The position numbers and the translations under genes were made by a program. Source: a virus (Duplodnaviria > Caudoviricetes). Taken from it: a stretch of 64,000 bases of DNA. Shown in pieces: positions 1,052 to 63,047 of the stretch; within the stretch, counting starts at the first letter, position 1; each line of letters starts with the position of its first letter. The stretch covers positions 1,331 to 65,330 of the IMG/VR virus record IMGVR_UViG_3300018481_000021; one strand, given 5' to 3'. Under the pieces are notes generated by a model. It was not told where the DNA came from. It made no database searches and was given only the letters and a program-made list of their open reading frames with translations.

Positions 1052-1374
1052 TCGAGAGGAGCCATTGGGCCATTAACGGGGAGGATGTAAGGGAACCCCT
1101 CCATTACCCCGACTGTGGCCTGGACAACATCTATCTTCTTAGCGGCTATGAGGTCGTTCAGACGGCTTATGGCGATGGTGTTGCCATTAAGAACCTTGAT
1201 GGTCTTAGAAGGGCCATTGGGTTCCAACTGGCGACCAGGAAGAAGCTGCTGCACGGCCAGGAAATCAGATTCCTCCGCAAGTTCTACGAGAACAGCAACC
1301 AATGCGTAGGCGCATGGGTTCCCAATGAATGGGAGCCTGCTGTATATCCAACATTAGATGTTGGATACAACTAA
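1048..1374 (+). CDS. YgiT/MqsA/HigA-like antitoxin or Xre regulator homolog, HTH truncated
   Basis: HYPDCGLDNIYLLSGY...LHGQEIRFLRK resembles the N-terminal part of this family; the HTH helices that normally follow are absent. Confidence 0.55.
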   Translation: MIERSHWAINGEDVREPLHYPDCGLDNIYLLSGYEVVQTAYGDGVAIKNLDGLRRAIGFQLATRKKLLHGQEIRFLRKFYENSNQCVGAWVPNEWEPAVYPTLDVGYN

Positions 1375-1375
1375 A

Positions 1376-1717
1376 ATGATCGAGAAAAACATTACCGATA
1401 AGATCAGCGCGCTGCTGCGCAGCTACAAGCCGGGTGTGCATTATTACCGGCCAGTACCTAGCCGCTACGGCGCGAGGTTCTTGGATTACATAGGTTCTGC
1501 CTATGGTTACGCTTTTGTTATCGAAGCTAAGCGGCCGAATAGAAAGCCGACTGAAGCACAATTTGAAAAGCTACGGGTCATGGAGGAAGCTGGAAGTGCT
1601 GTATTCATCATCAGTAATTTAGGAGATATCGCAGAATTGGGACAATGGTTGACATGGTGTCGCCAAACCTATCTCGGCCGACCGGACTGGTGGCCCAAGG
1701 TGGAGGATGCGAAATGA
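1376..1717 (+). CDS. VRR-NUC domain nuclease
   Basis: MIEKNI...LDYIG...FVIEAKRP...PTEAQ...EAGSAVFII pattern, upstream of SNF2 helicase. Confidence 0.85.
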   Translation: MIEKNITDKISALLRSYKPGVHYYRPVPSRYGARFLDYIGSAYGYAFVIEAKRPNRKPTEAQFEKLRVMEEAGSAVFIISNLGDIAELGQWLTWCRQTYLGRPDWWPKVEDAK

Positions 1718-3339
1718 ACGGCAAAACAATTGACCTGGGCAAGATTGCTGAGCCGTTTCTGGTCGAGCAATTGAATATGATACTTTTGCCGTTTAATTGC
1801 GAAGTAGAATTGCCAGATAACGCTAAGCTGGTAACACTACGCGGGCATGCATTCTATGCTGCGCCGAATACACCGCAACTAAGTTCCTTGCTATATTCTG
1901 CCGGCTATCCATTGTCGTCGCCAATTTATTTCGACGAAGATTATGATTGGTCGGATGTGCAGATATATGAAGCTCAGGCACAGATGGCTGGGCTACTGAC
2001 TTGCCGGCGACGGGCCTACAATCTGAGTGCGATGGGTACAGGCAAGACAATAGGTTCATTACTAGCGATTGATTGGCTGATTGAGCGTGGGCATATCGAG
2101 CAAGCGCTAATCGTTGCGCCGCTGACTATACTATGGACCGTATGGCAAGACGAGATCAGGAAACACTTTCCCAGGTTGCACCCGGTAATCTTGCACGGTG
2201 CCAAGGAAAAGCGGCTGAAGCTGTTGGCGATGAACAGTTGGAACGTGGCAATCATCAACCATGAGGGCGTGCAGGTCGTCCAACAACAATTGATGGATAA
2301 GCATTTCGGTATGGTGCTGATTGATGAAGCTGCGACGTATCGTGATGCGCAGACAGCGAAGTGGAAAGTCATGAAGAAGGTAGTCGAACAGGCTTCGTTC
2401 GTAAGCGCGTTGACCGGCTCACCTACTCCTAACGCACCCAGCGATGCGTATGGACTGGCTCGTTTAATTACACCTGAAAATTGCCCGCGCAGCTTCACGG
2501 CGTTCCGGCATTCTGTCGAGTACGAAATGTATCCAGGTCGTTGGATGCCGCGCAAGGATGCCGCCGAGAAAGTGGCCAAGCTGTTGCAACCTGCGGTACG
2601 TTTTAAACGCTCGGATATCATCGAGCTAAAAGACGTGTTCATGCAGACACAACGTGTCTTGTTGTCATCGGAACAAAGCAAGGCGCTAACAGAATTGAAA
2701 AAGGAAAGTATGGTTCGCTTTCCCGAAGGAATAGTTGATGCTATGAACGCAGCGGTCATGGTCGGTAAGGCGTTGCAAATCTGTGCCGGTGCAGTTTACA
2801 CCAGCGATAAGAACGTGGTCCACCTGCACCCGCAACATCGAATTGAAACCACTGAGACCATCATCGATAGCGCCGAAGGTAAAGTAATCGTGCTTGCTCC
2901 ATTTCTGCACGTCACCGCGATGCTGGCCGAGAGGCTGAGACAAAGTTATAAGATCGCCGTGGTAACGGGTGCAGTAGCAACAAAAGATCGATCATCAATC
3001 TTCCGACGTTTTCAAGATAAGCAAAATCCTTTGCGGGTATTGGTGGCGCACCCACGGGTGTTGGCGCATGGGCTCAACCTCACAACGGCCAACGTTATTG
3101 TTTGGTTTAGTCCATTGTACAGCAGAGAAATATACGAGCAAGCAAATGCACGAATTACGCGTCTCGGACAGTCCCGCGAACAGTTTATTATTCATCTTTC
3201 TGCTGGTGCTGACGAGGATGCCGTGTACAAAGCATTAGAAACAAAAGGAAAAGTGCAGAATGTTATATTGGATATGTTTGGTCTAAAAATGGAGAATACA
3301 AATACTAGGAATATTAACCCCTTGATAGGACTGGAATGA
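1714..3339 (+). CDS. SNF2-family DNA helicase
   Basis: MGTGKT, LIVAP, LIDEA, LTGSP, AHGLNL, QANARITRLGQ motifs; GGAGG RBS upstream of 1714. Confidence 0.93.
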   Translation: MNGKTIDLGKIAEPFLVEQLNMILLPFNCEVELPDNAKLVTLRGHAFYAAPNTPQLSSLLYSAGYPLSSPIYFDEDYDWSDVQIYEAQAQMAGLLTCRRRAYNLSAMGTGKTIGSLLAIDWLIERGHIEQALIVAPLTILWTVWQDEIRKHFPRLHPVILHGAKEKRLKLLAMNSWNVAIINHEGVQVVQQQLMDKHFGMVLIDEAATYRDAQTAKWKVMKKVVEQASFVSALTGSPTPNAPSDAYGLARLITPENCPRSFTAFRHSVEYEMYPGRWMPRKDAAEKVAKLLQPAVRFKRSDIIELKDVFMQTQRVLLSSEQSKALTELKKESMVRFPEGIVDAMNAAVMVGKALQICAGAVYTSDKNVVHLHPQHRIETTETIIDSAEGKVIVLAPFLHVTAMLAERLRQSYKIAVVTGAVATKDRSSIFRRFQDKQNPLRVLVAHPRVLAHGLNLTTANVIVWFSPLYSREIYEQANARITRLGQSREQFIIHLSAGADEDAVYKALETKGKVQNVILDMFGLKMENTNTRNINPLIGLE

Positions 3340-3350
3340 TGTGCTATATT
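3322..3350 (+). promoter_or_regulatory. sigma70-like promoter
   Basis: TTGATA-17-TATATT upstream of ORF 3386. Confidence 0.5.
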
Positions 3351-3385
3351 TGTGACACTACCCTGAACCTAAAAGGACCTAACCA

Positions 3386-3823
3386 ATGACACCCGAACTG
3401 TTCAAGAAATTCAGCAAGCTACCCGCTGGCGAACTGACCAGCATGTATGTCGCGCTACGCGACGAGCGCGACCAGTTGAACCGGCAAAAGAAGTACAAAC
3501 AGAAGCTAATGGATCAGTTGGCGGTGATCCTACAACAAAAGTTGGATGAAGCTCAGGTGCAGTCGTTCCGGGCGTTGAGCAACGGCAAGACGGTGTATCG
3601 CTACGAACTAATTACGGCGCTGGTTGAGGACCGCGACGCATTGATTGCGTTCGTCAAGGAACACGACGCGTTTGATTTGTTAGAGACAAGGGCGAGCAAG
3701 GCAGCTTGCCAGATTTATGCGACCACGCCGACTGGTGAGCTGGACGACGAAGGAAATCCAATCTTGCAAGGTTTACCTCCCGGCGTGCGCTTGGATACGC
3801 ATGTCAAGCTAGGTGTGCAGTGA
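3386..3823 (+). CDS. conserved phage replication-module protein
   Basis: Coiled-coil N-terminus, DAFDLLETR and LPPGV motifs; lies between helicase and SSB-like gene. Confidence 0.65.
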   Translation: MTPELFKKFSKLPAGELTSMYVALRDERDQLNRQKKYKQKLMDQLAVILQQKLDEAQVQSFRALSNGKTVYRYELITALVEDRDALIAFVKEHDAFDLLETRASKAACQIYATTPTGELDDEGNPILQGLPPGVRLDTHVKLGVQ

Positions 3824-3873
3824 ACCATCCAACAATGATTGTTGGATATAGCACAACAACAGGAGAAGCTACA

Positions 3874-5055
3874 ATGACCTCTGAACTGACCACCACCCGC
3901 AGGCAGTTGCCGGATTACCTGCGTCCCTTCAAGGCCAAGACCAGCGAGTACGATGTCGCTGGTGGGGCACCAATCGGCCGGTTGTCATTGGAAGGCAAGG
4001 TGTTCACGGCCTTGTATCGTGATCAGGAGCAAATCCTGAAAACGGCCAAGGGCCATGCCATTCCGATGTTTGATGTGGTAATCGTTGGCGCTAACCCGGC
4101 GACGACTAAGACATATTACGCTAGTACCTATACCAAGGCGGCGAAGTCGGCACGGCCCGACTGTGCTTCGGCCGATGGCGTCGCACCCGATGCTGGTGTG
4201 CCAAATCGACAAGCTTTGAAGTGCAATGAATGTCAGCATAACAAGTGGGGTACGGCTATAGGTGGTACGGGGGGTAAGCGGTGTCAAGATAACAAGCGCA
4301 TGGCTGTCGTACCCGAGGGTAATCTGGACAATCTCGAATGGGGTGGGCCGATGCTCCTACGGATGCCGCCCGCCAGCTTCAAGAACTTCGTGCCATATAA
4401 GCTTAGCCTGGAACGCGATGGCATCGATCCGCACATGGTTGTGACGCGGCTTAGCTTCGTAGCTGAGACGGGTCATCCCGAACTTGATTTCGAGTTTCAA
4501 CGTTTCCTCGAACCGGGTGAAGCACAGCGCATTGCCGAGTGGCGTGAAGCTGACGCCGAGGGCCACATTCAGAACGAGCATCTACTGCGAGTGCTGCGGG
4601 CGAGCCAAGTTGAGTTGTCCGAAGGCGAACATGAAATCGAAGATACTAAGCCAGAACCGGCTGCGGCCATCACGCCGACCGATAAGGTTGCCGCAGCGAA
4701 GATCGTCGCCAGGACTGGTAAGCCCAATGGCGAGGCTGTAACGAAACCCGTTGCAGTATTTCGCAAGCCCGAGCCTCCTGCACCAGCACCAGCACCAGCA
4801 CCAGCACCAGCGCCAGTACCAACACCCGTTGTTGCTAAAAGCCCAACGCCAGAAGAGGCCAAGAGGGCACGGCTCGCAACGCTACTGGCTGAAGCCGAAG
4901 CTTTGGACGCCGAGCTTAATCCAGAAGAAAACGTTGAGCTTCCTGCCATGAGCACCGAAGCTGCTACAGATGATACGCCGACTAACGACGACGAGCTTAG
5001 TTCAATCGATTTGCTGAACGAGCTTACCCAGGAACTGGGTCGCATCCCTGACTAA
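3874..5055 (+). CDS. putative ssDNA-binding/annealing protein with Zn-binding Cys cluster and acidic tail
   Basis: AGGAG RBS; PDC..DG..PD, CNEC, GKRC motifs, LLRMPPASFKN; Pro/Ala linker and acidic C-terminus. Confidence 0.65.
   Translation: MTSELTTTRRQLPDYLRPFKAKTSEYDVAGGAPIGRLSLEGKVFTALYRDQEQILKTAKGHAIPMFDVVIVGANPATTKTYYASTYTKAAKSARPDCASADGVAPDAGVPNRQALKCNECQHNKWGTAIGGTGGKRCQDNKRMAVVPEGNLDNLEWGGPMLLRMPPASFKNFVPYKLSLERDGIDPHMVVTRLSFVAETGHPELDFEFQRFLEPGEAQRIAEWREADAEGHIQNEHLLRVLRASQVELSEGEHEIEDTKPEPAAAITPTDKVAAAKIVARTGKPNGEAVTKPVAVFRKPEPPAPAPAPAPAPAPVPTPVVAKSPTPEEAKRARLATLLAEAEALDAELNPEENVELPAMSTEAATDDTPTNDDELSSIDLLNELTQELGRIPD
4780..4815 (+). repeat. (GCACCA)n microsatellite encoding a PA linker
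   Basis: Tandem GCACCA units. Confidence 0.85.
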
Positions 5056-5086
5056 TCCAACAACTTTTGTTGGATATCCCTGACAA

Positions 5087-5141: not shown

Positions 5142-7952
5142 ATGTCCCTCACGGCGCTACTGCACGACGACGGTGAGCCTATCATCGTTTCAGGATCAGA
5201 GAAGCTAAGCAATGGCGATACCAAGTGGTGGAACCAATATGCCCAAGACAGAACTAAAGCCGACCGTTTCGGCATTAATATTCAACGCAATGCCTATTGC
5301 CGCCACGGTATCCACGATGGAACCATCCGGGATGCCGATAATCGTCCAGACTGTCGAGTTAAACATTTCACAGGTTCACGAACTTTCTTTATTGACATCG
5401 ATGCTGGAACCGGACACAAATCCCCGCAATACCAAACCCTGAATGAAGCTGTTGTAGCATTCAAGTCAGCTATTATGGAACTCTGCCAACTCGGCCTGCC
5501 GCGACCCAACCTGATCCAGTTCACTGGCGGTGGGCTGCAAGCTGCATGGGTAACTGACACAGTTTACCCACAGGCCGAGTGGTCGCAATTGATGCGAATA
5601 CTTTTTCTGCTGTTGAAAAAGTTTCGCTTAGAGTTGGATGCCAACTTAACCTCAATTGATCGCGGCATTCGCTATTGCGGTGAAGGCTATGTCAATGTTA
5701 ATTACGGCGATCCTAAGCCAACCAAGATTATCCATATCGACAACCGAATTAATGGTAACGTTTTCCAAAATGTACTCAAGCAGCACGGACAAATTCGCGT
5801 CGTACCAGCAAAGAAACAGAAGTCTGAATACGATATTGAGGGATTTGAATTTCAATTTGATATTACAGCAATCGCAGATGAATGTAAAGTGGTGCAGGAA
5901 GCAGTCAACACAGGGGGTAAGGATCATGATCGACGGCATTGGATCAACTTAGTTTCGCTTGCGGCTAAGAATCACGATGAAACGTTTGGGCGAAGCGCTG
6001 CGCATGCTGTATCGTCGCAACATCCTGACTACGATGCTGACGAGGTTGATGGTAAGTTTGATGAGTTTCGCAACAGTGAAATCAAGGGTTATATTACATG
6101 CGAAAAGCTAGGATTAGAGCATCGGTCATTATGTCAAAGCTGCGCGTACTATCAGAAAATTATCAGCCCCGCTAAGATTCAGGGTTTACTACGCAGTAAG
6201 GCCACAGCCATAGAACCACATCAATTCAACGGAGCTATCATCGATAGCTTGTATTTCAATTCAGAGCAGGGTATTCGCAGGCTACGGCTAGGTACAGAAA
6301 CTGCTGACCCGATGGTATGGACTGGAGTACGGATCGACGCCATCCAACTAGAATTGTTGGACGGAGACAGCAAGCAAGAATACCTTGCCTTTGAATGCGG
6401 AGCCAGTGATAGGGCTAACCATAATCGACGTATTTCGGTAGATATCAAGCGACTGCAATCCGTCACTTCTATGGCGACGGCGCTAGGCGAGAACAGCGTA
6501 ATTATCGGGCACGACCAACAAAAAGGGATGCAGAAGGCTATGGTTAGTTGGGTCGAGAAGCTACGAAAAGATGCAACGCGGACAATCAGATACACCCGTC
6601 TTGGTTGGACTGAAAGCCGTGATGGTTTCGTACTAGGTGAATGGTTGTATCGCCGCGATGGTGAGCGCGAACCAATTCAAGACACCCTCAGTAATCTGCG
6701 CAATCACAATACTCATGGCAGCTCTGGTTATTACGACGAACTAATTAATAACATTATTAGTAATGAGCATCGACCCGACGCACACGCGTTAATAGCCGCA
6801 GCTTTTTCATCTGTACTGCTAGAAATCATCGGTGCGTCGGGCATCGCACTGAATTTCTATTCAATCCGATCAGGTTTCGGCAAAACAACATTGTCAAATT
6901 TAGCGGCATCGATTTGGGGCAATCCGCGTGACTTGATGTTTACTTTGAATGATACCGAGAACAGTGTAATTCGTCGCATTGCGATACTCAATAATATCGC
7001 TGCGTTCTACGATGAACTACAGATTACCCCCGACAACGCACGGGCGGTAATCAACTTGATTTTTCGCCTAAACTCGAACATGGAGAAGTCACGCCTCGAT
7101 GGTAGCAGCCGAGTACAGGAACGCGGTGACTGGCGAACGCCAATGATTTTCACCACCAATTATTCCTTCATTGATCTGATCCGCAAGAACCGTAGTGGGC
7201 GCGGTGGCGATGCAGGATTGGCGCGGGTAATGGACTTCGTGTTGTCACCACTACCAGATAATGCCCGCGACCACATGGCGGAAGTGGCTATGGTATTGCC
7301 AAAGTTGCATGAGAACAATGGCTGGCCCGGTCACAAATTTGTACCTTATGTAGTCGCTAATCAAGACAACATTGAAAAGAGATTAACTCAAACGATAAAT
7401 TTGTTGGTGCGACTAACCCAGCAACAAGACAATAGCGTATTCAGCCGCAATCAAATATTCATCGGCGCAACCATGTTGGTCGCAGCCAGAATCGTCAACG
7501 TCAATAATATTTTTCCCATTGATGAACGCAAAGTATTGACGGCCTTGGTTGCTGCCATTGGTAGCGTGAAAACAACTAAGCAAGAGCTAGTCGTTGCTAA
7601 TGACCCGTTGAATGTAGTCAGAGATTATATGGTAGCTATGGAAAAGCATCGAGTTACTACTATTGCCGCAAACGGCAAGATAGAGATAGACATGCATCGG
7701 ATGCAACCGGTCAAACCTTGGGCCTACGAGGTTAAAATATATGATAAAACAATTATGCTACCAGTGCTTGGCTTTATCGAGTGGTTACGACAACAGGAAT
7801 ACCCTTACGGCAATTCGATACTGGAAGTGCTACGACAGACCTACAAGCCACAGTCGCGACGGCTGTGTGAGAACGTGCCCAGGATGTCGGGACCGTACCA
7901 GGAAATCATCGTGTTGCCCGCAGTTGGCGCTCTGAAAGGATTTTTCGATTGA
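5142..7952 (+). CDS. DNA primase-helicase (prim-pol N-terminus, DUF927-like helicase)
   Basis: FFIDID and TGGGLQAAW prim-pol motifs, ITCE...CQSC Zn site, LGW motif, Walker A SGFGKTT, FYDE Walker B. Confidence 0.85.
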   Translation: MSLTALLHDDGEPIIVSGSEKLSNGDTKWWNQYAQDRTKADRFGINIQRNAYCRHGIHDGTIRDADNRPDCRVKHFTGSRTFFIDIDAGTGHKSPQYQTLNEAVVAFKSAIMELCQLGLPRPNLIQFTGGGLQAAWVTDTVYPQAEWSQLMRILFLLLKKFRLELDANLTSIDRGIRYCGEGYVNVNYGDPKPTKIIHIDNRINGNVFQNVLKQHGQIRVVPAKKQKSEYDIEGFEFQFDITAIADECKVVQEAVNTGGKDHDRRHWINLVSLAAKNHDETFGRSAAHAVSSQHPDYDADEVDGKFDEFRNSEIKGYITCEKLGLEHRSLCQSCAYYQKIISPAKIQGLLRSKATAIEPHQFNGAIIDSLYFNSEQGIRRLRLGTETADPMVWTGVRIDAIQLELLDGDSKQEYLAFECGASDRANHNRRISVDIKRLQSVTSMATALGENSVIIGHDQQKGMQKAMVSWVEKLRKDATRTIRYTRLGWTESRDGFVLGEWLYRRDGEREPIQDTLSNLRNHNTHGSSGYYDELINNIISNEHRPDAHALIAAAFSSVLLEIIGASGIALNFYSIRSGFGKTTLSNLAASIWGNPRDLMFTLNDTENSVIRRIAILNNIAAFYDELQITPDNARAVINLIFRLNSNMEKSRLDGSSRVQERGDWRTPMIFTTNYSFIDLIRKNRSGRGGDAGLARVMDFVLSPLPDNARDHMAEVAMVLPKLHENNGWPGHKFVPYVVANQDNIEKRLTQTINLLVRLTQQQDNSVFSRNQIFIGATMLVAARIVNVNNIFPIDERKVLTALVAAIGSVKTTKQELVVANDPLNVVRDYMVAMEKHRVTTIAANGKIEIDMHRMQPVKPWAYEVKIYDKTIMLPVLGFIEWLRQQEYPYGNSILEVLRQTYKPQSRRLCENVPRMSGPYQEIIVLPAVGALKGFFD

Positions 7953-8506
7953 ACTACTGTCAAGACGTAGGCAAGCCTTGCACCCTCTGCTGTCGCATCA
8001 TGGGTGTAGCTGAAATACGCAAGCCGCGTATGCAGTGGTGCGAGCACTGCAACATAGGTAAGGGTTGCCGCATCTACGACTATCGTCCGTCATCATGCAA
8101 TGAGTTTCAATGCATAGCAAAACAAATGTATGATGACGGTAAGGATGTTCCGCTAGGCTTGAAGCCATCCGCATGCGGAGCTGTGCTACATGGTACGAAA
8201 GATGGTGAGCACTTAGTCGTTGATTTGAACGATGGGGCTGATTGGCGCGTAGGTGAACTAGGTAAAATTATTTATAAAATGAGCCGGAAAAATTCCGTAC
8301 TGATCCGTACTCGTTCGCGCATGATTGTTGTCAAGAATAATACAGTGCTGGCTGACTACGTGGATGAGCGCTTAATGCACGGCAAAGAAGAGATAGAAGT
8401 TGAGTTACCAGAGCCAGACCTTCCAACAACTAATGTTGGATCAGGCTATAGCCCCGCTGCGGGTACGGCGGTACGAGCGGTTCTTCGAGGCCGGCTTAAG
8501 GCGTAA
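7949..8506 (+). CDS. YkgJ-like CxxCC cysteine-cluster protein
   Basis: CTLCC...WCEHC...GCRIYDYRPSSCNEFQC. Confidence 0.75.
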   Translation: MNYCQDVGKPCTLCCRIMGVAEIRKPRMQWCEHCNIGKGCRIYDYRPSSCNEFQCIAKQMYDDGKDVPLGLKPSACGAVLHGTKDGEHLVVDLNDGADWRVGELGKIIYKMSRKNSVLIRTRSRMIVVKNNTVLADYVDERLMHGKEEIEVELPEPDLPTTNVGSGYSPAAGTAVRAVLRGRLKA

Positions 8507-41454: not shown

Positions 41455-41472
41455 CCAACAACTCCTGTTGGA

Positions 41473-51109: not shown

Positions 51110-51143
51110 GGCCCGGAGGGTTTACCCTCCGGGCCTTTTCTTT
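51110..51143 (+). terminator. rho-independent terminator
   Basis: GGCCCGGAGGG-TTTA-CCCTCCGGGCC then TTTTCTTT. Confidence 0.88.
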
Positions 51144-51239
51144 GTCCTGCCGCTAGGCCATCCAACAATGGTTGTTGGATGGGGAAGGTACGGTCATCAC
51201 GCCTACTGCGCGCGTACGCCTACGCGGGCTCGCGTAGAA

Positions 51240-52752: not shown

Positions 52753-52946
52753 AGGCACACTACTCGAATGGTTTATCGGGTAGGTTCTACCAAAGAAAAT
52801 CCAACAATGATTGTTGGATCGAACAAATACCCGATGATGGTCATCGGGTATAACCCTAAGAGGCGAGATAGCGAAGTGGACCGGGGCAAGGGCGTCGATA
52901 CTACCCCCACATGGCGCCCTTGCAACGCACCCTGAGCAAAAAGGAA

Positions 52947-53354: not shown

Positions 53355-53435
53355 TTCTCTTTTGCCGTAACTACCCAATCCAACAACTAATGTTGGATGA
53401 CAGCTACTACCCTGAACCAAAAAGGTACGATCATC

Positions 53436-53681
53436 ATGCAACTGCCCGCCACCTACGCCAGCATCAAACGGATCGCTGAAGAATACACGGCTCAGAAGCT
53501 ATATTGGGCGTGCTCCACGGCACGGCCTAGGCCGCGTGTTTATTGCGACGCGACTACTGCATGCGCTATTGTTGCCGTGTACGACGCGGTGAACGAAGAA
53601 AACAAACTCAAGTTAGAGGCGATGATCCGCAAAGGCCCGCACATGTTGCCGCGCATCGCAGCTATTGCGTGGGGGAAGTAA
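53436..53681 (+). CDS. hypothetical protein
   Basis: AAAGG RBS. Confidence 0.55.
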   Translation: MQLPATYASIKRIAEEYTAQKLYWACSTARPRPRVYCDATTACAIVAVYDAVNEENKLKLEAMIRKGPHMLPRIAAIAWGK

Positions 53682-53683
53682 CC

Positions 53684-55024
53684 ATGACCTCCTACTCCAT
53701 GCCTATCTCGGAAGCTGTCGAGCTTATCATGACGGTCTACGCGGGCAAGGCCGTGCTGGTCAGGGGCGCGCCGGGCGCGACTAAGACCGCGCAGCTTCTT
53801 TCTGCCGCGATCAAACGGCAAAAGGAAGACCCTGAGTTTGGCGCGTGTTGCTTCAACGCGAGCAATGCACAAGCGCCAGACTTCTTTGGTGTGTGGCAGT
53901 CCAATACTGGCCCGCTTACTGCCAATGCCGTGCCACAGTTGTTTCAGCCGGTGCCCGAGGAAGGGCTGCGTGGCGCGTTCCCTGCGCTGTGCCCACGTGA
54001 GCTTGTGCATCCTGACGCGAGTATACAGCCAATCGATCCTGATCTGCTGTATACTGCGGGCTTGCAGCGTTCTGTGCTGAGCACGTATCCGCGTGGACTT
54101 GTAATCGTGGACGAGGCGAGCAAGGTCCAGGGTGAAGACACCATGGCCAGTTTGTCGATGCTGGCCTATGAGGGGCGCACGGGTCAGTGGGGCGTGCCGA
54201 CTTCACGCTCAAATTCCACGGCCAGCCCCTCGAACAGACAAGCGTTGTCCGATCCAACAACAGTTGTTGGATGGACCCGAGTTTTCATCGCCAATCGGGC
54301 CGAGGATAACTCACGCGATCTGGATTTTCCCTCGACGTTCGACAATCGCGTGGCGATCCTGGACGTGCATTGCACGTTCGACGACGTAGCGCCCTACTGG
54401 CGCAGCCAAGGGATGCACCCTTCGTTTGTTTCTTTTGCTGGTGCTTACTCCGGGCTGATCCTGTCCAATCAGGTTCCGGCGGTGCGCCAGCAATTCGGCA
54501 CGGCGCGGTCATGGTTCGAGGCGCATTCCGAATGCATGGCCTACTGCAAGAGCTTGGGAATTGAGAGTTCTGAGCCGGATCGCTACATGCCCGAGTTGCT
54601 TCCCGTGTTTGGCCCTAATGTCGAGGATCGCAGCGCGCAGCGTTGGCACCGCACCTTCATTGGCCTGATCGCAGCGCGATGTGGCGAAGCGATTGCATCG
54701 CAATTCAGCGAGTATCTTCTTGCCAGTACCGATCTGCCTACTTACGACGAGATCGTGTCTAACCCGGAGACCTGCATCATCCCCGAGCATCCTGGCGTAA
54801 TCCATGCCGTTGTCGAGACCCTACTGACCAATACCGATCTGTGCGAGATCGACGAGATCGGAAAATATCTCAAGCGACCGGAGTTTCCCAAGGCGATGGC
54901 CTGCGTCTACTTGAATAGGATGATGGATCGTCATCCTATTGCGGCCGCGAGCAGCAATAAATTCTTTGCCTTGGTGAGGCACTTCGGGATTGCCGCGTCC
55001 ATGACGCTGCATCACAGCCGGTAA
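53684..55024 (+). CDS. MoxR-like AAA+ ATPase
   Basis: GAPGATKT Walker A variant, VIVDE Walker B, ANRAED, FDNR, TARSW motifs. Confidence 0.8.
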   Translation: MTSYSMPISEAVELIMTVYAGKAVLVRGAPGATKTAQLLSAAIKRQKEDPEFGACCFNASNAQAPDFFGVWQSNTGPLTANAVPQLFQPVPEEGLRGAFPALCPRELVHPDASIQPIDPDLLYTAGLQRSVLSTYPRGLVIVDEASKVQGEDTMASLSMLAYEGRTGQWGVPTSRSNSTASPSNRQALSDPTTVVGWTRVFIANRAEDNSRDLDFPSTFDNRVAILDVHCTFDDVAPYWRSQGMHPSFVSFAGAYSGLILSNQVPAVRQQFGTARSWFEAHSECMAYCKSLGIESSEPDRYMPELLPVFGPNVEDRSAQRWHRTFIGLIAARCGEAIASQFSEYLLASTDLPTYDEIVSNPETCIIPEHPGVIHAVVETLLTNTDLCEIDEIGKYLKRPEFPKAMACVYLNRMMDRHPIAAASSNKFFALVRHFGIAASMTLHHSR

Positions 55025-55454: not shown

Positions 55455-56861
55455 ATGTCTTACATAATCCCCGACGAACTGCTGCAACCCTTCAGCTTCC
55501 TGCACACGGCGCACCGCAGCATGGCCGTGTATCTGATGCACATACCGATTACCCTAAAAGTAATCGACGTGGACCCTAACGGACCAAACTCGTTCAAGGC
55601 GCAGACCTATGGGCGCGTAATCGAGTTCGCCAAGTGGTTCCTGCCCACTATACCCGACTATGAGGAGCAAGCGCTCGTGCTGACGCACGAGATACTGCAC
55701 CAGATGTGTCAACACTGTACCTTGATGCACAAGTGGTCACGGGCTGGGTCAATAACTGGCCGCTGGTCAGACAAACACGAGCCTGTGACGCGGCCGTTCG
55801 ACATGGGCGTGGCGCAATGGGCCTTGGACTACATCGTCAACGACGCCGGCTATCGCATGGGCTTGCCGCTACCCAAGGACGCGCTGCACCGTCCAGCAAT
55901 CGGTACGTGGCTAGACCTTGAAGCCGATGTGTACGTGCGACTGTACGACATGATGTTTCAACAATCCACTCCTGAGCCAGACCCGCGCACGCAAACGCAG
56001 AAGGACCACGATAATCAGCAGAAAGATAATTCTTCTGCCGGTGGGTCTGATCCAACAACTAATGTTGGATCGCTGCAACGGTTCAACTCTTCTGCCGATC
56101 CGGGCAATTCATGCCCCGACACGAGCAAGCCCGGCGCAGGTGCGTATGACGTGATCCCTTCCGATCCCACCGATGAACGTGGCGACAACGATGTGCGGCA
56201 ACGGGCTGCGATCCGCAAGGCGATGGCTGAACTGAATCCAGACAAGACCCGAGGCATCTGGCCCGGTGAAATCGAGAAGCTGATTGATAAACTTCTACCA
56301 CAAAAGATGGACTGGCGTGATGTGCTGCGTCCACGCTATCGCCACTACATGCCCGGCCCGAAGCCTACCTGGAGCAGCTTCGACCGTCGTGCGTTCCCTC
56401 ACTCTATTCTTTTGCCGGGCCGAGTGGCGAAGCGGGCTGGTACTGTGGCCCTAGTCCTCGACACATCAGGTTCAATCGGTCGCCGCGAATACGAGCATTT
56501 CATCAACCACCAGATAGGACTGTTCGAACAGACTATGCCGCGTACGCTGTATGTGCTGGAAACAGATACGCAGGTGCGGCGTGACACGTTAATCAAGTAT
56601 CCTTCACAACTGAAGGAGTACACCAAGCCAATCATGTCCAGCAAGAAAGGACTAATCGGCGGTGGTGGCACGAACATGCCTGCTGCGCATGCATGGATGC
56701 GGTCGAATAACATCCAACCCGACATCACTGTGTTCTTCACCGATGGCTACACTCCCTTTCCTGCCGATCTAGGCACGTCACGCGAGGTGATTTGGGTCAT
56801 GACCACGGATAAGGTCGCGCCTACTGAAGCTGGCCGCACTGTACGGATGTGGATGGACTGA
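55455..56861 (+). CDS. DUF2201-like metallopeptidase + VWA domain protein
   Basis: LTHEILH, MIDAS DTSGS, GGGTN, FFTDG. Confidence 0.85.
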   Translation: MSYIIPDELLQPFSFLHTAHRSMAVYLMHIPITLKVIDVDPNGPNSFKAQTYGRVIEFAKWFLPTIPDYEEQALVLTHEILHQMCQHCTLMHKWSRAGSITGRWSDKHEPVTRPFDMGVAQWALDYIVNDAGYRMGLPLPKDALHRPAIGTWLDLEADVYVRLYDMMFQQSTPEPDPRTQTQKDHDNQQKDNSSAGGSDPTTNVGSLQRFNSSADPGNSCPDTSKPGAGAYDVIPSDPTDERGDNDVRQRAAIRKAMAELNPDKTRGIWPGEIEKLIDKLLPQKMDWRDVLRPRYRHYMPGPKPTWSSFDRRAFPHSILLPGRVAKRAGTVALVLDTSGSIGRREYEHFINHQIGLFEQTMPRTLYVLETDTQVRRDTLIKYPSQLKEYTKPIMSSKKGLIGGGGTNMPAAHAWMRSNNIQPDITVFFTDGYTPFPADLGTSREVIWVMTTDKVAPTEAGRTVRMWMD

Positions 56862-56862: not shown

Positions 56863-57096
56863 ATGAACGAACTAGGCCGACTTGGAGTTTCTGAGTATGG
56901 CTGGTTGGTCATACCCGACGATGTTACGGCCTTAGAGGCTGCGCGGCTGGCCGAGTTACTGGCCAAGATTGTGGCCGCCGAGACAACTAGAACCGAGCAC
57001 GATCCAATAACAGAAATCAAGAAACTAAACCTCGAACGATTTTTCCAACCGTTCGATCCAACAATTAGTGTTGGATCAGACCCTGAACAGGAGTAG
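56863..57096 (+). CDS. hypothetical protein
   Basis: Coupled ORF. Confidence 0.5.
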   Translation: MNELGRLGVSEYGWLVIPDDVTALEAARLAELLAKIVAAETTRTEHDPITEIKKLNLERFFQPFDPTISVGSDPEQE

Positions 57097-57101: not shown

Positions 57102-57491
57102 ATGACCACCCGTGAATACCACTTCCGCCTTCTGGTCATCGATGATGACCGTATCCTTTTGCTGTATCCTAAGAGCAGCGAAGAACTTCATGGCCGGCGG
57201 GCTAAGGCCGCACTGGAGTTTCTACGAAGTGATCTTGTGCCTAAGCCAAGTGAACCAGCCAACAGAAATTACAATATGACTGAAACAATGAAAATGCTAC
57301 TAGCTGAGGTAGTTACTAATAACGGTCCCGTTACGGCAAAAATGATTGCCGAGAATTTACAAATAAAACTAGGGACTGCAAGCTCGCGCCTATCTATGCT
57401 TAAAAGCATGGGTTACTTGGATTTTGTTACACGGGGTAAGTATCTCGCTACCATCAATGGGCGTCTATGGCTGAAGGAACAGGAAATATGA
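57102..57491 (+). CDS. winged-HTH DNA-binding protein
   Basis: PVTAKMIAENLQIKLGTASSRLSMLKSMGYL..RGKY. Confidence 0.75.
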   Translation: MTTREYHFRLLVIDDDRILLLYPKSSEELHGRRAKAALEFLRSDLVPKPSEPANRNYNMTETMKMLLAEVVTNNGPVTAKMIAENLQIKLGTASSRLSMLKSMGYLDFVTRGKYLATINGRLWLKEQEI

Positions 57492-57834: not shown

Positions 57835-57932
57835 ATGTGTGAATTTTATCACATACTTGTAATCCTTTTTGCTGTAATCTACCCGTAACCCGTCCAACAA
57901 TCATTGTTGGATACAACTCTAGGAGAACTTCG

Positions 57933-58658
57933 ATGTTCACGTACATCTTGACCGACGCCATCGACATCCACTACGATACTGGAGAAGTCCAGGATACTAC
58001 TTGGTATGCCTTGAGAGGCGAAGACCAGTTATGGCTGGGCATGGGTTTGGATACTGCTTATGGTGGAGGAGGTGACGACTTCATCAATGGTGGCTGGGGC
58101 AACGACACCTTGTTCGGCGAACGGGGTCATGACCAATTGCAGGGTGATTTCGGCAACGACACTCTGATTGGAGGGCGTGGCAATGACCTGCTGTTCGACG
58201 AATGGGACGAGTTTTCCGACAACATCTATGGTGGGCCGGGTAACGACTGGATACAGAGCGACGGCGGCGTGGTCGTCGCCGGAGCTGGTGATGACCGTAT
58301 CCACCTCATGAACACCTACACCGAGACCACGGTGCAGCTCGGCACGGGTCGCGATACTCTGATTTGGGACGCTGATTTTTACGATTACCGCATGAACCGG
58401 GTCGATGTCTTCGATTTCAAGGCGGAAGACACGCTCGAACTGGCTGCAAACGAGTATGACTACAGGGACAACGCGGAAATACTCGACATTTTGGACCGCA
58501 ACAACGACGGCTGGCTGGGTCGCAAGGACGTGGAGACCGTGGACAACGGCGACGGCTACGGGGTCAGCGTCGGCACCAACACACTCACGTTGGAGATTTT
58601 CCACATCGATCTGGTGTTTCACGGCCTGAAGAACGCCAGCTTCGATTTTCTGAGTTGA
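57933..58658 (+). CDS. RTX/haemolysin-type Ca2+-binding repeat protein
   Basis: AGGAG RBS; about 8 GGxGxDxL nonapeptides; EF-hand-like DRNNDG; C-terminal DFLS. Confidence 0.85.
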   Translation: MFTYILTDAIDIHYDTGEVQDTTWYALRGEDQLWLGMGLDTAYGGGGDDFINGGWGNDTLFGERGHDQLQGDFGNDTLIGGRGNDLLFDEWDEFSDNIYGGPGNDWIQSDGGVVVAGAGDDRIHLMNTYTETTVQLGTGRDTLIWDADFYDYRMNRVDVFDFKAEDTLELAANEYDYRDNAEILDILDRNNDGWLGRKDVETVDNGDGYGVSVGTNTLTLEIFHIDLVFHGLKNASFDFLS

Positions 58659-58837: not shown

Positions 58838-59234
58838 AGAGAACCTATCCAACAATCATTGTTGGATGAACTTACGGAGAAGTTGTCATGAGCTTAGTTT
58901 GGACTGCGTTGGCTACTTTGGTGGTGCTTGTCGCGGTGTACCTACTCGCCGCGAGTCAATTCCAGGGGCCGGATGCGAATGACTAGCGAAATGACCTACC
59001 CGATCTATTGCCGTACCGTTGGCAATCGTACCACATCGGCGGTGGTGGGCTACACGCCTTTACAGCCTAAGCGGATCGGTCTGTACGACACCGACACGCC
59101 TCAAGTAGTCGCGAGACGGGCTAAGCTCGACTTTAACACGGTAGCCGATGTCGGTCCTAATCTGGCTAACACTACGTGGATCATAACTTTGTTCGATGAT
59201 CCAACAACAGTTGTTGGACAAGAGGGAAAGTAAG

Positions 59235-59830: not shown

Positions 59831-60766
59831 ATGAAGAGTATGCGCTACCCCCTGAACCTTATCCAACAATCAATGTTGGATCACATGAAAGAAACTCCAA
59901 TGCCGATCACTTTCAGCCAACTTCACGCATCGACCAGATGGAAAACTGAAACTGAGTTGTTGAGCGTGTTCAATCCGTTGTTGTTGAGCATGGGCCGTCC
60001 ACCAAATTTGGATGAGCACTATGCAAATGTACTCGAAGAGTACTGGGGCGATAAGTTGAACATGATGATTGAGCATGCAACTGCAATTGCCGAGCTGCAG
60101 CATGATACCGAGGAATGCTGGAGCAGTAGAAATACTAACGCGGTTTTGTATGGAGGCTATTTGGATACACATCGAACAACCAATCTTTATTGGATCGCGA
60201 TGTCGTTGAGCACTGGCAGCGACCTACGCAAAATTGCCGACTGGTTAGGGCTCAGTAACACCGCAGCGTTGCTGCTGCGACCGTCATGCATGAACATGAG
60301 CGGGACCACCAAACGGGCTTTAGTCCACGCTGATTGGTTCTATAATAGGCGCTATGTAGATTGTCCTTCTAATCAGGCACATGATCCAGAATTATGCGAC
60401 TGGATCGATATGACTTTTTCTGCTATCGAGGAATGGTTGGAACTGACTAAGTATATCGAACAAATGCAAAGTTGTACGACATTATTTAGTATGGGTTCGC
60501 GAAATATTAACGTAAATAAACATGAGGCTGCAATCAAGACTCAAGCCATGGAGCTGATACTCAATCATGTTTGCGGTGGTTATCCCGTAAGCGGCTGGGC
60601 CATCTTGACGTTGAACAAAGATACCTGGGCACGACGCCATGACAAAAATAAAACTGATCTATTACGGCGATGGCTGGAGAAGCTGGTGCTGATCAATCGT
60701 AGTTCGTACGAAGAAAAAGAAGCTTTGGGCATGCATCTTACGCATGCTCAACAGTATGCAGCATGA
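59831..60766 (+). CDS. hypothetical protein (true start may be 59885 or 59900)
   Basis: Long ORF after promoter. Confidence 0.6.
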   Translation: MKSMRYPLNLIQQSMLDHMKETPMPITFSQLHASTRWKTETELLSVFNPLLLSMGRPPNLDEHYANVLEEYWGDKLNMMIEHATAIAELQHDTEECWSSRNTNAVLYGGYLDTHRTTNLYWIAMSLSTGSDLRKIADWLGLSNTAALLLRPSCMNMSGTTKRALVHADWFYNRRYVDCPSNQAHDPELCDWIDMTFSAIEEWLELTKYIEQMQSCTTLFSMGSRNINVNKHEAAIKTQAMELILNHVCGGYPVSGWAILTLNKDTWARRHDKNKTDLLRRWLEKLVLINRSSYEEKEALGMHLTHAQQYAA

Positions 60767-61107: not shown

Positions 61108-61742
61108 TGTGGTGGTACTTCGATAATTGGTTCTATAAGCATGGCGAGATGGCGTCGATCCAACAACAGTTGTTGGATAAGAAAGCTCGCATTCCACCAA
61201 TGCTGACGGATAATCATATCTGCGACATTTCCACACGAGGCGTCAACTGGATGATGGCGGCGACACATACTTATCATCGGCAAACAGTATTGTTGCCGTA
61301 TGCCGGGCATCGCTCGGTACGGATGGGGCTACGTAATTTTTGCCATCTGAACTATTGGTTGATTGAGCCGCGTGGTGACAGGTTCGCTGACCTATGTCAA
61401 GACGATACGCAGGAAGAAGATGAAGATATCTACAATATTAATACCATGTGGCATTTAGACCCATTGGATTGGGCGGGCAAGTTCGATCCAGATGGAATGC
61501 AAGTGGACAGCTTATTGATCAATCCGCCACATGGCCGCGCGGCCGAGACCTTGATGGCCTTGCACCCATTCACCAAGGAACGCGGTTGCACTGCCGCTGT
61601 GATCGATGCCAGCGAGCTGCTTTCACCAGAACGTGAAGTGTTTCGCCGCTGGGCTGGCAAAGAAGGGTTCACCTGGGGCCTACTAAAAGACCTTTTCTTT
61701 GCCGCTTATGGCGACGAGCATCCTGTAATCCTGTTCAAGTAG
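61104..61742 (+). CDS. hypothetical protein with methyltransferase-like INPPH motif
   Basis: LLPYAG (motif I-like) and LLINPPHG (motif IV-like). Confidence 0.45.
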   Translation: MMWWYFDNWFYKHGEMASIQQQLLDKKARIPPMLTDNHICDISTRGVNWMMAATHTYHRQTVLLPYAGHRSVRMGLRNFCHLNYWLIEPRGDRFADLCQDDTQEEDEDIYNINTMWHLDPLDWAGKFDPDGMQVDSLLINPPHGRAAETLMALHPFTKERGCTAAVIDASELLSPEREVFRRWAGKEGFTWGLLKDLFFAAYGDEHPVILFK

Positions 61743-61751
61743 GAGAGTGAT

Positions 61752-62108
61752 ATGCGTAAGATCGTTCTTGTGATGCTGCTAGTTACCACAACTCCCGCCC
61801 ATGCGGGCAACTTCGAAGGCGGTTGGGGCGCTAAGGCCAATGCCGACCGCGCGATGCGGCCCGGTGGTGACTGGAACAGTTGGTGCTGCGCCAGCGCCCC
61901 GGAAACAACCTATAGCAGCCCCGATGGCAACTTCGCCGTCGCGGCGAAGCGGGCTTGGGGCAATGTGACTGGTTGGTTCGGCAAGGGCAGAACTAATCTC
62001 GGTGAACCGGACTATTCCGCGCCGTCATATGGGATCGGCTACGGTAGTGGTGGAGGCTCCGGCGGCACTGCCACTGATGGCGGTTCCGGCGGCACGGCGG
62101 GGAGCTGA
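61752..62108 (+). CDS. secreted Gly-rich small protein
   Basis: AGGAG RBS; signal peptide ending PAHA. Confidence 0.6.
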   Translation: MRKIVLVMLLVTTTPAHAGNFEGGWGAKANADRAMRPGGDWNSWCCASAPETTYSSPDGNFAVAAKRAWGNVTGWFGKGRTNLGEPDYSAPSYGIGYGSGGGSGGTATDGGSGGTAGS

Positions 62109-62350
62109 TGATGGTGAATCTAGTTGCACGTCACGTTGCGGCGGCTTTCATCGTAGCGTGGGGCGTGGCGATAGCGGCAATGATAGTCTCACTAGGGCTT
62201 GGCACTACCGAGTTTGGATGGACACCGGAAATGCGGGCGCGTGTCCAAGTCATCGCCGAAATGCTGATGTGGATCGGCGTAGCGATTTCAGTCATACACA
62301 CGACGTTGGATATCCTTATCTGGCTCGCCGACAAGGGAAAAGACCAATGA
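62108..62350 (+). CDS. two-TM membrane protein
   Basis: Hydrophobic helices; coupled. Confidence 0.55.
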   Translation: MMVNLVARHVAAAFIVAWGVAIAAMIVSLGLGTTEFGWTPEMRARVQVIAEMLMWIGVAISVIHTTLDILIWLADKGKDQ

Positions 62351-62721
62351 CGGTTGAACGTATGGCTGAAGCTATCTTGGAACTAACCGGAAACATGGCT
62401 GGGCCTCTCGGCTTGGAATTGGAATTGCCACCTAGAGAAGAACTACGACCAAAAATCATCCGTGATCTGCAAGCCAACGACGAAGATGCTTTGTCACTGG
62501 CCGATTTGGTCGAACGTGTCGTCAACGCCTACATGGGCGGGGGCGTCGAGCGTCATGGCCGCGCGTTGATTGAAGCCATAGCCGAGACCAACAAGGCTAA
62601 GCGGCTGTGCATGAACGTGCTGACTGGACCGGGTGCAGGATCATGGGAGTGCATCATTCGCCGTGATCGTACCCAACAAATGCCGGCGATTATCCTGCCG
62701 GGTAGCAAGGAGTGGAATTGA
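62347..62721 (+). CDS. hypothetical protein
   Basis: ATGA overlap, RBS. Confidence 0.55.
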   Translation: MTVERMAEAILELTGNMAGPLGLELELPPREELRPKIIRDLQANDEDALSLADLVERVVNAYMGGGVERHGRALIEAIAETNKAKRLCMNVLTGPGAGSWECIIRRDRTQQMPAIILPGSKEWN

Positions 62722-63047
62722 TGCGTAACTCCTATATACCGGATCATGCTTCAATATGTTACCCCGACCAACCAACAGAACAATTGGGTGAGCCTTATCT
62801 GCTGTATGAGTGGAAGTTTATTTATCAAGTAGCTCAAGGTCGCTGGTGGCTGAGTCAAAGAGTTAGTGTCAGTTTTGCTATTTACGGAGATAATTTACCT
62901 CTATTGTTTGCCGGTTCATGTGTATCCAGTGATGCTGATTTATGTTTTTTACACGTCGATACAATAGGCGAATTGGTGCGGATTTGTCGCCGACAATTCG
63001 TTAAGATCATCCAACAACAATTGTTGGATGCAACCCAGGAGAGTTGA
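62721..63047 (+). CDS. hypothetical protein
   Basis: TGATG overlap, AAGGAG RBS. Confidence 0.5.
   Translation: MRNSYIPDHASICYPDQPTEQLGEPYLLYEWKFIYQVAQGRWWLSQRVSVSFAIYGDNLPLLFAGSCVSSDADLCFLHVDTIGELVRICRRQFVKIIQQQLLDATQES

Follow-up and report, generated by a model that had tools for sequence, protein, structure and literature searches.

Why some phages carry one exact short palindrome in an array across the whole genome is a puzzle that keeps recurring, and the array of the Cluster O mycobacteriophages has, in the passages of its published description that deal with the repeats, stood unexplained since 2015 (PMC4351075). Those passages give more than 30 copies dispersed over the whole genome of a phage without an integrase, about one-third of them coding and the rest intergenic or near gene ends, not tied to promoters and of unknown function; in Corndog, the repeat TGTTCGG-N3-CCGAACA forms 34 invariant 17-bp dyads, for which the authors predicted a dimeric binder (PMC4351075). 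Two other kinds of dispersed phage sites bear comparison, again by the sections of the reports that concern them: the stoperators of Cluster A and CA actinobacteriophages, 13–14 bp long and numbering approximately 25–30 sites, at which a phage protein is bound and transcription is blocked (PMC13313380, PMC4351075), and the start-associated sequences (SAS) of Cluster K, asymmetric 13-mers present in 11–19 copies among non-structural genes only, with imperfect arms in their extended form, ESAS (PMC3203893). Here, we describe an array of a 21-bp palindrome that spans the genome of a tailed phage (Duplodnaviria; Caudoviricetes), IMG/VR virus record IMGVR_UViG_3300018481_000021. The window analyzed comprises 64,000 nucleotides, bases 1331–65330 of the 65,330-base record, which CheckV rates as complete, and coordinates are those of the window unless stated otherwise. 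The initial annotation of the window had proposed that the palindromes are marks set along the genome by a dimeric protein.

The core of the element, TCCAACA-N5-TGTTGGA, is present in 35 mismatch-free copies in the window, at every start given in the initial annotation, and a 36th lies at record bases 361–381, in the 1.3 kb beyond the window. In 26 of the 35, the outer A/T is included as well, giving the full arms ATCCAACA-N5-TGTTGGAT; where single sites are described below, "perfect copy" denotes these 26 sites with full arms and "perfect core" a match in the 14-nt core only. The annotation had counted about eight degenerate copies, and seven with one or two mismatches were recovered (21-mers from 2278, 3527, 6342, 29202, 31528, 44579, and 46441). 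The array was also claimed to lie far above chance expectation, and 100 dinucleotide-preserving shuffles yielded no mismatch-free match and a mean of 0.28 matches at two or fewer mismatches, confirming that it is real. Among the 36 mismatch-free copies of the complete record, the arms are identical and the spacer is always 5 nt long, as reported earlier, and mostly of the form A-Y-N-R-T (24 of 36), with A..T as the outer pair in 25 copies and Y..R as the next pair in 34. What is conserved, then, is a palindrome of 21 bp whose half-sites, ATCCAACAAY, flank one free base. Nowhere in the genome does a palindrome occur in which changes in one arm are balanced by changes in the other. Identical arms, a fixed spacer, a symmetric spacer, and the lack of compensated palindromes together exceed the needs of a stem and support sequence-specific selection on the arms, rather than selection for mere structure. 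An assembly artefact, the possibility raised at the outset, is contradicted by the occurrence of the same arms in an independently assembled contig and of an analogous array in a cultured, isolate-sequenced relative (see below).

The copies are distributed in a distinctive manner with respect to genes. If "deep" is defined as more than 65 nt inside an open reading frame (ORF) of the ORF map used here, 8 of the 36 copies are deep in ORFs, compared to 79% of all positions (P = 3e-13). The typical copy occupies the interval from a stop codon to the ribosome-binding site that follows; in several, the palindrome shares bases with the stop codon (TGA-TCC..., TAA-TCC...) or with the start codon (..TTGG-ATG), and many lie 14–27 nt before the next ATG, with the Shine-Dalgarno sequence (SD) in between. 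The deep copies use two of the three reading frames, encoding either IQQxLLD or PTTVVG, and the giant ORF of 6.2 kb holds three copies of its own. As the annotation had it, copies are present in the replication, structural, and early modules alike. The gaps between copies are filled with genes and range from 322 to 5069 bases, the largest being 3,794 once copies with two or fewer mismatches are counted, in line with the previously claimed ceiling of about 3.8 kb. The proposed regularity also held against random placement: the coefficient of variation (CV) of the gaps is 0.57 versus 0.96, and 1 in 5000 simulations was as even, although part of this evenness results from the preference for gene junctions. 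CRISPR arrays consist of repeats separated by unique spacers of 25–40 bases, and a CRISPR array was rejected here, as it had been in the annotation, because the repeats are not clustered head to tail and the intervals between them hold genes. Overall, selection maintains a site every ~0.3–3.8 kb across the whole chromosome. The least costly places, from a stop codon to the ribosome-binding site that follows, are used for this, and in long genes the sites are written into the coding sequence by substitution.

Relatives were identified through the portal protein. As a single query against viral contigs, this protein produced no match; searches with an alignment of 21 portal homologues yielded 149 distinct related loci, and the complete relatives G002–G006 were compared along with the complete Rhizobium phage RHph_TM3_14A, a name for which a literature search returned no paper. 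An exact-motif scan of the IMG/VR viral contigs (83 loci) gave isolated matches only, except for L015, a 5.2-kb contig with 66–72% DNA identity in which the same arms recur at four sites, the loops being free. Other members of the clade have arrays built on other words. The Rhizobium phage contains (G)TTACC(T)-N4-6-(A)GGTAA(C) in at least 34 copies, counted by the 5-nt arm, of which 16 of 34 are deep in ORFs and 18 are at gene boundaries, in a genome with 9% non-coding DNA. In G002, TTACC-N5/6-GGTAA is present in 69 copies, against a shuffle maximum of 11, and 138 of the 189 TTACC/GGTAA pentamers lie in dyads; single words of the Chi-like or uptake-like type were excluded on account of this pairing, and restriction sites because phages avoid rather than enrich them. 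The G002 gaps are even (CV 0.59; minimum 205 versus ~15 expected; maximum 2510 versus ~4533; none of 5000 simulations as even), about 47 of the 69 dyads are inside called ORFs, and 13 hold the ribosome-binding site in the loop and end 0–8 nt ahead of a called start. Gaps of 205 bases to 2.5 kb with most dyads in ORFs, together with the recoded giant gene of the present phage, point to coverage of the chromosome and not to control of single genes. The same relative (L295–L298) has a second palindrome, ATTGTACAAT, in 6–7 copies.

L208, whose portal protein is 61% identical to that of the present phage, has 11 copies of AGTTAC-N6/7-GTAACT in 19 kb, and L252 has 10 copies of TTTCTG-N3-CAGAAA in 14 kb; the motifs are CCTTGACC-N4 in L209 and (GT)CACAC-N3 in G004/L215. 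In G003 (L299), seven copies of the 14-bp palindrome TTACACCGGTGTAA lie between bases 1274 and 13640 of a 64-kb genome and form a local, operator-like array, not a genome-wide one. Over all loci, a 6-nt arm recurs at least three times in 46 of 149, about half of these arms being GC-only words that may be due to chance, given that no shuffling was done per locus. The GTTACC family is common to phages of 56% and 63.5% GC. In G005 (L307–L310), an oriented word, ACGGGAGT, occurs 22 times, bracketed by TTAM...GTAA (TTTAAT/GTTACT) and AAAA, with an ATG within 12 nt (4–12 nt behind) in 12 of the 22 copies; by analogy with the Cluster K SAS, it appears to be a start-associated sequence with a ribosome-binding site. 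The more distant cultured phages HMO-2011, CHOED, and phiM6 contain no array in the first 50 kb of each. Genome-wide dyad arrays are therefore a trait of this clade, with a motif particular to each lineage. Literature searches on phage genomes with dispersed palindromes or conserved stem-loops revealed nothing relevant.

The positions of the sites are better conserved than their sequence. Gene order is collinear between the present phage and L208, and 6 of the 11 L208 sites match one of ours in place, at gene junctions or down to codons: after a tail-protein gene, after the gene for an 804-aa protein, before the portal gene, at the junction of the scaffold and capsid genes, before the internal virion protein gene, and inside the orthologue of ORF 28716–29210. 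In this last case, the dyad centres occupy the same alignment columns (DPTTVVG in our phage, GVTPEVTP in L208) without a gap. A site before the portal gene is also found in L015, L209, and the Rhizobium phage, and one after the capsid gene in L015, L209, the Rhizobium phage, and G002; the site after the terminase gene has a counterpart in the Rhizobium phage, where the dyad begins 0 nt past the stop of the large terminase subunit gene (TerL). The copy in the polymerase gene (VQQLLLD) aligns gap-free to FLDLLEH of the Rhizobium phage. Such gap-free alignments within ORFs indicate that these copies were written by substitution, not insertion, which excludes the insertion of mobile elements as their source and shows selection for a site at these places. 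The motif turns over quickly: by the portal protein (65%), L015 and L315 are related to our phage to the same degree, and only L015 has our arms. Rapid change of the motif with positions retained, down to codons, points to a reader that co-evolves with the sites and argues against both chance and mobile DNA.

The explanation that we favour, tentatively and at somewhat less than an even chance, is that the array comprises the cis sites with which a symmetric binding factor, specific to the lineage and probably encoded by the phage, tiles the genome. A single sequence-specific factor, co-evolving with the phage lineage, would recognize the 21-bp palindromes. It would be a small, fast-evolving, phage-encoded symmetric dimer that contacts the two 10-base half-sites (ATCCAACAAY) on duplex DNA, and the bound factors could act as genome-wide marks, either as roadblocks or insulators for the host RNA polymerase or as points from which coating or organization of the phage DNA is nucleated. 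In function, the nearest comparison would be with stoperators made symmetric. The duplex form of the target, the dimer, the phage origin of the reader, and the function of the bound array are what we infer here; the recognition-site system itself is real, selected, clade-wide, and fast-evolving. The earlier proposal of a dimeric protein marking the genome is thus upheld in its even tiling; as to its duplex dimer, the free loops and the two spacer lengths of the relatives suit a stem-loop at least as well.

A number of observations weigh against a duplex-bound dimer encoded by the phage. In the relatives, loops are free and two spacer lengths coexist within one genome: the L015 spacers between 7-nt arms are N6 twice and N7 twice, the Rhizobium phage has dyads with both N5 and N6, G002 has 19 spacers of N5, 49 of N6, and one of N7, and L208 has eight of N6 and three of N7. 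A rigid duplex dimer would not tolerate this variation and a stem-loop reader would. A TTAC...GTAA core is common to many lineages at spacings from N6 to N9, which is more simply described as a conserved stem base. In our own genome, pairing continues past the motif: the two adjoining positions pair in 16 and 15 of 36 copies, where 9 are expected, and 5–7 further pairs of unrelated sequence are present at 13109, 25387, and 49720; the summed flank pairing of the 36 copies was reached in none of 2000 simulations. Furthermore, relatives G005 and G006 lack a genome-wide dyad, and the Rhizobium phage array is uneven (CV 0.93), with a largest gap of 8.7 kb. On the protein side, no binder was identified, no ORF, whether from our phage or the Rhizobium phage, is exclusive to the array-bearing genomes, and the two candidate readers have no homologues other than themselves in a search of 5.8 billion proteins.

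These candidates, proposed by inference only, are two 129-aa products. ORF 48758–49147(-), the first gene leftward from the promoter-like site 49202–49174(-), has a ribbon-helix-helix signature (CopG, E 0.0022; Arc, E 0.0081) below the Pfam cut-offs and no match in a PDB sequence search. ORF 57102–57491(+) has a winged-helix signature (Fe_dep_repress, E 4.7e-5), also below the cut-off; its PDB sequence search returned non-significant MarR/DtxR/CodY-like hits (MarR-like chains, E 0.17–0.5), and a complex prediction with two copies fell short of the mark by 0.05 and 0.02, which is neutral on binding. The orphan status of both fits a fast-evolving reader and proves nothing. The initial annotation had put forward these two as binders along with ORFs 49792–51093 and 51584–52699, and the latter pair match nothing. 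Apart from the two weak DNA-binding matches, no integrase, ParAB, or Cro/CI-type repressor was detected among the 73 ORFs scanned. Pfam searches of 47 small ORFs of G002 produced HTH_3, MerR, and zinc-finger matches, families that differ from those of our candidates, so that no common reader family emerges.

The variable loops bring into play a possible, if doubtful, alternative, namely, that the palindrome acts as a stem-loop in single-stranded nucleic acid, with a factor reading the stem pairs and ignoring the loop, either in mRNA (as a tag on the ends or starts of genes for stability, processing, attenuation, or translation control) or in single-stranded DNA at the replication fork. Free loops of two lengths per genome, a TTAC/GTAA stem base kept across lineages with different upper stems, and the additional non-conserved complementarity in the flanks of our sites are all accommodated by such a reader. 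Predicted RNA folding of each site with 4-nt flanks averages -11.4 kcal/mol, versus -3.3 for random windows (-7.1 in the Rhizobium phage and -6.1 in G002), and location speaks for it as well: our sites adjoin stop codons and sit 14–27 nt before start codons, 13 of the 69 G002 dyads lie just before a start with the ribosome-binding site in the loop, the 22 copies of ACGGGAGT in G005 are inside TTAM...GTAA with 12 near an ATG, and distant relatives again have sites past the capsid and terminase genes. Several features tell against it. There is no strand-specific, RNA-like signature in three genomes, G-T (G-U in RNA) pairs in the sense strand being about as frequent as A-C pairs (5 versus 3 at our outer pair; 12 versus 13 and 12 versus 9 in G002; 4 versus 6 and 5 versus 5 in the Rhizobium phage). 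Compensatory variants were not found, the symmetric constraint on our loop would be useless to an RNA, the stem is not followed by a U-tract when read in the sense direction, and eight of our sites and about 47 of the 69 in G002 are in ORFs, where processing or termination would be harmful. The stem in our genome has three G-C pairs out of eight; those of G002 are just 5 bp long, with Watson-Crick pairing at 10 of 61 and 12 of 61 of the next positions past the arms. Template-switch correction of quasi-palindromes is a mutational bias that could yield extended pairing without selection. With the evidence split, recognition of duplex DNA is slightly ahead of the stem-loop for this genome.

Alternatively, the host might supply what reads the sites (a regulator, nucleoid protein, or nuclease-control sequence), or the sites might be copies of a host repeat; on either view, differences between lineages would be differences between hosts. 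We consider this unlikely. The motif does shift with phage lineage, which also tracks the host, and a conserved phage-encoded reader was not found. The GTTACC family, however, spans phages of disparate base composition, and L015 and L315 stand at the same distance from our phage, yet only the former shares its arms. One metagenome-assembled genome (MAG) of the Acidimicrobiales (G001, ~2.2 Mb; L088, L098, L150, L288–L294) contains seven core copies on seven contigs, but there the core forms the middle of a longer palindrome, a repeat of ~50 nt, GTTCTTTMMGCG..., that is absent from the phage, and the MAG has 72% GC (70–73% over these loci) against 50.6%; the repeat looks like a repetitive extragenic palindromic (REP) element or a miniature inverted-repeat transposable element (MITE), and its identity with the phage core is probably a coincidence. 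In the species-genome scan (185,579 genomes), the matches listed, at least 120, include three for this MAG, on three contigs, two for another MAG, and isolated ones otherwise; no candidate host with an array, the refuting case named in the annotation, appears among them, though a host rich in copies may lie outside the matches listed. Slightly less probable still is a private replication code, in which the dyads would be hairpin priming or loading signals of the clade's archaeo-eukaryotic primase (AEP)-type primase-helicase (PriCT-2 plus DUF927, ORF 5142–7952). The palindrome would form the same hairpin on both unwound strands, and such a code would explain why sites are kept in a 6-kb gene by recoding and why the signal drifts with the enzyme. 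The site density, one per 0.9–1.8 kb, is close to the length of an Okazaki fragment, and the array-free distant relatives HMO-2011, CHOED, and phiM6 are annotated with DnaG- or T7-type primases; against this stand the 8.7-kb gap in the Rhizobium phage array and the finding that G005 and G006 have the same primase and no genome-wide dyad.

Two further readings have very little to recommend them. Selfish miniature mobile elements of the REP or MITE kind, spread by insertion without benefit to the phage, would account for short, lineage-specific, mostly intergenic palindromes, and we regard them as highly improbable, given that the in-ORF copies align gap-free to relatives, phages with another motif have copies at orthologous places, the 73 ORFs scanned yielded no integrase and no transposase, HUH/Y1 or other, and the spacing is over-dispersed, not clustered. 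A set of plain intrinsic terminators or phage promoters with a sequence in common by accident is equally improbable. The attraction of this reading lies in the location at gene junctions and in the copies at 52799 and 58847, the only two flagged as terminator-like, both on the antisense strand. At most sites, however, no T-run follows the stem in the sense direction, and a perfect palindrome acts both ways; the 14–27 nt between site and ATG, which include the SD, leave no room for a promoter; this genome has canonical promoters, and a GC-rich terminator with a T-run, apart from the sites; and eight copies are inside ORFs. No fixed distance of the sites to sigma-70-like promoters was detected, and single-sided spacer deviations showed no significant bias relative to the direction of transcription (7 versus 1 in a hand count, P approximately 0.07). 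A promoter or plain terminator role does not fit, and N4-type hairpin promoters and T7-type RNase III sites were excluded because the palindrome is directionless and copies lie in ORFs.

Family searches over 73 distinct ORFs describe the bearer of the array as a podovirus-like tailed phage of 65.3 kb with 50.6% GC. Among cultured phages, the closest to it are Rhizobium phages of RHph_TM3_14A type, with a portal protein 41% identical, and a nucleotide search with 7 kb of the window against 50,697 phage records gave no match. A family-A DNA polymerase ORF of 615 codons spans the record ends (window 63557–64000 plus genome bases 1–1389), which indicates that the "linear" record is a circular permutation. 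No RNA polymerase, integrase, or transposase was found among the ORFs scanned, a tRNA scan detected no tRNA genes in the window, and no part of the window matched Rfam at the gathering score. Sigma-70-like promoter sites (TTGACA-17-TATACT/GATACT) lie at 49202–49174(-), 49433–49461(+), and 51527–51555(+), and a strong GC-rich terminator-like hairpin with a T-run is at 51110–51135(+), after ORF 49792–51093; 49174–49461, with its back-to-back promoters, and 51110–51555 are probably the early control region. The presence of canonical promoter-like sites there suggests that the phage uses the host RNA polymerase.

The plus-strand block at 1–8.5 kb encodes a PD-(D/E)XK nuclease, an SNF2 helicase, and the PriCT-2/DUF927 primase-helicase. 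The perfect copy at 1346–1366 falls in the last codons of ORF 991–1374, 9 nt ahead of an ATG; that at 3827–3847 begins 3 nt past the stop of ORF 3386–3823, ahead of the next SD and ATG; and in that at 5055–5075, the first base is the final base of the TAA stop of ORF 3820–5055. Degenerate copies with one mismatch are within the SNF2 helicase ORF 1645–3339 (2278–2298) and the primase-helicase ORF 5142–7952 (6342–6362), and one with two mismatches, within ORF 3386–3823 (3527–3547), could be due to chance, 0.28 such matches being expected overall. The perfect core at 8421–8441, 65 nt before the stop of ORF 7949–8506, marks the convergent junction of the plus- and minus-strand blocks. In the ESM Atlas, the core gene beside the primase (ORF 3853–5055) matched unnamed viral clusters, with a weak lead to Pam3_Gp34.

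The minus-strand block of ~40 kb (8.4–49.8 kb) encodes a 2061-aa virion protein, tail proteins, and an internal virion protein, as well as the capsid, scaffold, portal (PF23899), and large terminase proteins. The giant ORF 9102–15287(-) contains perfect copies at 10188–10208 (encoding IQQQLLD), 13109–13129 (PTTVVG, with a stem extended by 7 bp), and 15186–15206 (codons 28–34, IQQSMLD). Perfect intergenic copies follow at 17404–17424, between the stop of ORF 17430–19694(-) and the SD of ORF 16464–17387(-); at 20157–20177, between the stop of ORF 20190–21398(-) and the SD of the next gene, AAGGAGAG; and at 23527–23547, adjoining the stop of the internal virion protein ORF 23547–25388(-). Before this last gene is the perfect copy at 25387–25407, with a stem longer by 5 bp, at the junction that corresponds to L208 position 18389. 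The perfect copy at 28937–28957, in ORF 28716–29210(-), encodes DPTTVVG and is aligned without gaps to the L208 dyad at 14861 (GVTPEVTP). After the major capsid gene, a copy with two mismatches (29202–29222) corresponds to L015 4663, L209 8990, and Rhizobium phage 5844; the perfect copy at the scaffold/capsid junction (30253–30273) corresponds to L015 3617 and L208 13468; and the perfect core just upstream of the portal gene (35322–35342) to L015 66, L208 9967, and Rhizobium phage 10659. Between these, the one-mismatch copy at 31528–31548 has its pairing continued by the flanks gctttc/gaaagc. Further along, a perfect copy lies near the 3' end of the small ORF 36620–36865(-) (36641–36661), and an intergenic one (39020–39040) has its last base in the TGA stop of ORF 39040–41454(-) and corresponds to L208 6431. 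The perfect copy at 41453–41473 fills the gap between genes, overlapping both the stop of ORF 41473–43104(-) and the ATG of ORF 39040–41454(-), with GGAG in its spacer. The intergenic perfect core at 43096–43116, past the stop of the tail ORF 43130–46132(-), corresponds to L208 2312, and a one-mismatch copy is within the same tail ORF (44579–44599). Between the tail and terminase genes, a perfect copy (46294–46314) falls in a doubtful 152-aa ORF, and a one-mismatch copy (46441–46461) begins 5 nt past the stop of the large terminase subunit gene; the perfect core at 48243–48263 is 27 nt before the stop of ORF 48216–48761(-).

In the early control region, the perfect core at 49398–49418 ends 15 nt upstream of the -35 element of the promoter-like site 49433–49461(+), and another, at 49720–49740, with 6 bp added to its stem, is in the divergent part. 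The perfect copy at 51160–51180 lies 25 nt past the terminator-like hairpin 51110–51135(+), and the perfect core at 51598–51618 is 14 nt into ORF 51584–52699, downstream of the promoter-like site 51527–51555(+). The plus-strand block at 49.8–64 kb consists of small early genes plus an ATPase and a DUF2201/VWA protein. Here, perfect copies are located at 52799–52819, in a doubtful 81-aa ORF or intergenic; at 53378–53398, intergenic; at 54252–54272, in the ATPase ORF 53543–55024, encoding PTTVVG; at 56050–56070, in a variable stretch of the DUF2201/VWA ORF 55455–56861, encoding PTTNVG; and at 57056–57076, 25 nt before the ATG of the winged-helix-like ORF 57102–57491. An intergenic perfect core (57892–57912), an intergenic perfect copy (58847–58867), and a perfect core at a gene junction (59199–59219) follow, and the last perfect copies are 3 nt ahead of an ATG (59861–59881), near a gene start (61158–61178), and 18 nt before the stop of ORF 62712–63047 (63009–63029). 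The early ORF 57933–58658(+) has repeats-in-toxin (RTX) calcium-binding nonapeptide repeats (HemolysinCabind, E 4.6e-17), with a match in the repeats only to the Novosphingobium contig L126, and a tandem 6-base unit, AGAGGA, occurs in approximately 11 copies at 63214–63282, inside ORF 63044–63310. In a freshwater-sediment metagenome run (X1), 33 contigs are 80–100% like window 23001–43000, six of them at least 99% alike; these contigs are 150–250 bases long, from a DNA run containing 7% of the words, and none is informative on the palindrome sites. The run may come from the source sample or from a sister of it. None of the sequencing runs listed as matching the phage is RNA.

The trait spans a clade of ~60–65-kb podophages from soil, freshwater, and marine metagenomes, and the Rhizobium phage RHph_TM3_14A, with at least 34 dyads, provides a cultured model on Rhizobium etli in which bench testing is feasible. 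Identification of the reader would supply a new example of a lytic phage that marks or punctuates its whole chromosome and a set of orthogonal site/protein pairs. Among bacterial repeats, the closest in appearance are REP elements and bacterial interspersed mosaic elements (BIMEs), short species-specific intergenic palindromes that occur with REP-associated tyrosine transposases (RAYTs). The array differs from these in that no RAYT-like gene was found among the 73 ORFs, there is no conserved flanking tetranucleotide, and the in-ORF copies originated by substitution.

The comparison with described phage systems is drawn with the portions of the respective reports that treat the repeats. The Cluster K SAS/ESAS resemble the arrays of this clade in being lineage-specific inverted repeats with a variable spacer and a position kept before the same gene families (PMC3203893); they are near ribosome-binding sites and of unknown function, as are the G005 word and part of the G002 array, whereas ours are exact copies found in every module and inside ORFs as well. 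With the stoperators, the array shares many sites that are genome-wide and intergenic or overlap gene termini, but stoperators are asymmetric and oriented with transcription, and ours, as first noted in the annotation, are perfect palindromes; moreover, stoperators belong to temperate phages with an immunity repressor, and no repressor or integrase module was found here. The nearest parallel is provided by Cluster O, whose more than 30 invariant 17-bp dyads (PMC4351075) mean that the system is not undescribed as a kind, as the initial annotation had suggested. Like those repeats, our array consists of more than 30 invariant inverted repeats, both intergenic and coding, that are not tied to promoters. 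Unlike our phage, Corndog is an unrelated siphovirus of Actinobacteria, with no sequence homology; the arms there are 7 bp long with a 3-bp spacer, compared to 8–10 bp with a centre of 1–5 nt here; and five near-identical genomes were compared there, with in-place turnover across a deep clade seen only here. The likeness to the Cluster O repeats is thus best taken as a resemblance of kind, not membership by descent: the array described here belongs to podophages of an unrelated clade, its palindrome is the longest and most exact in the compared set, and it comes with comparative evidence of turnover in place.

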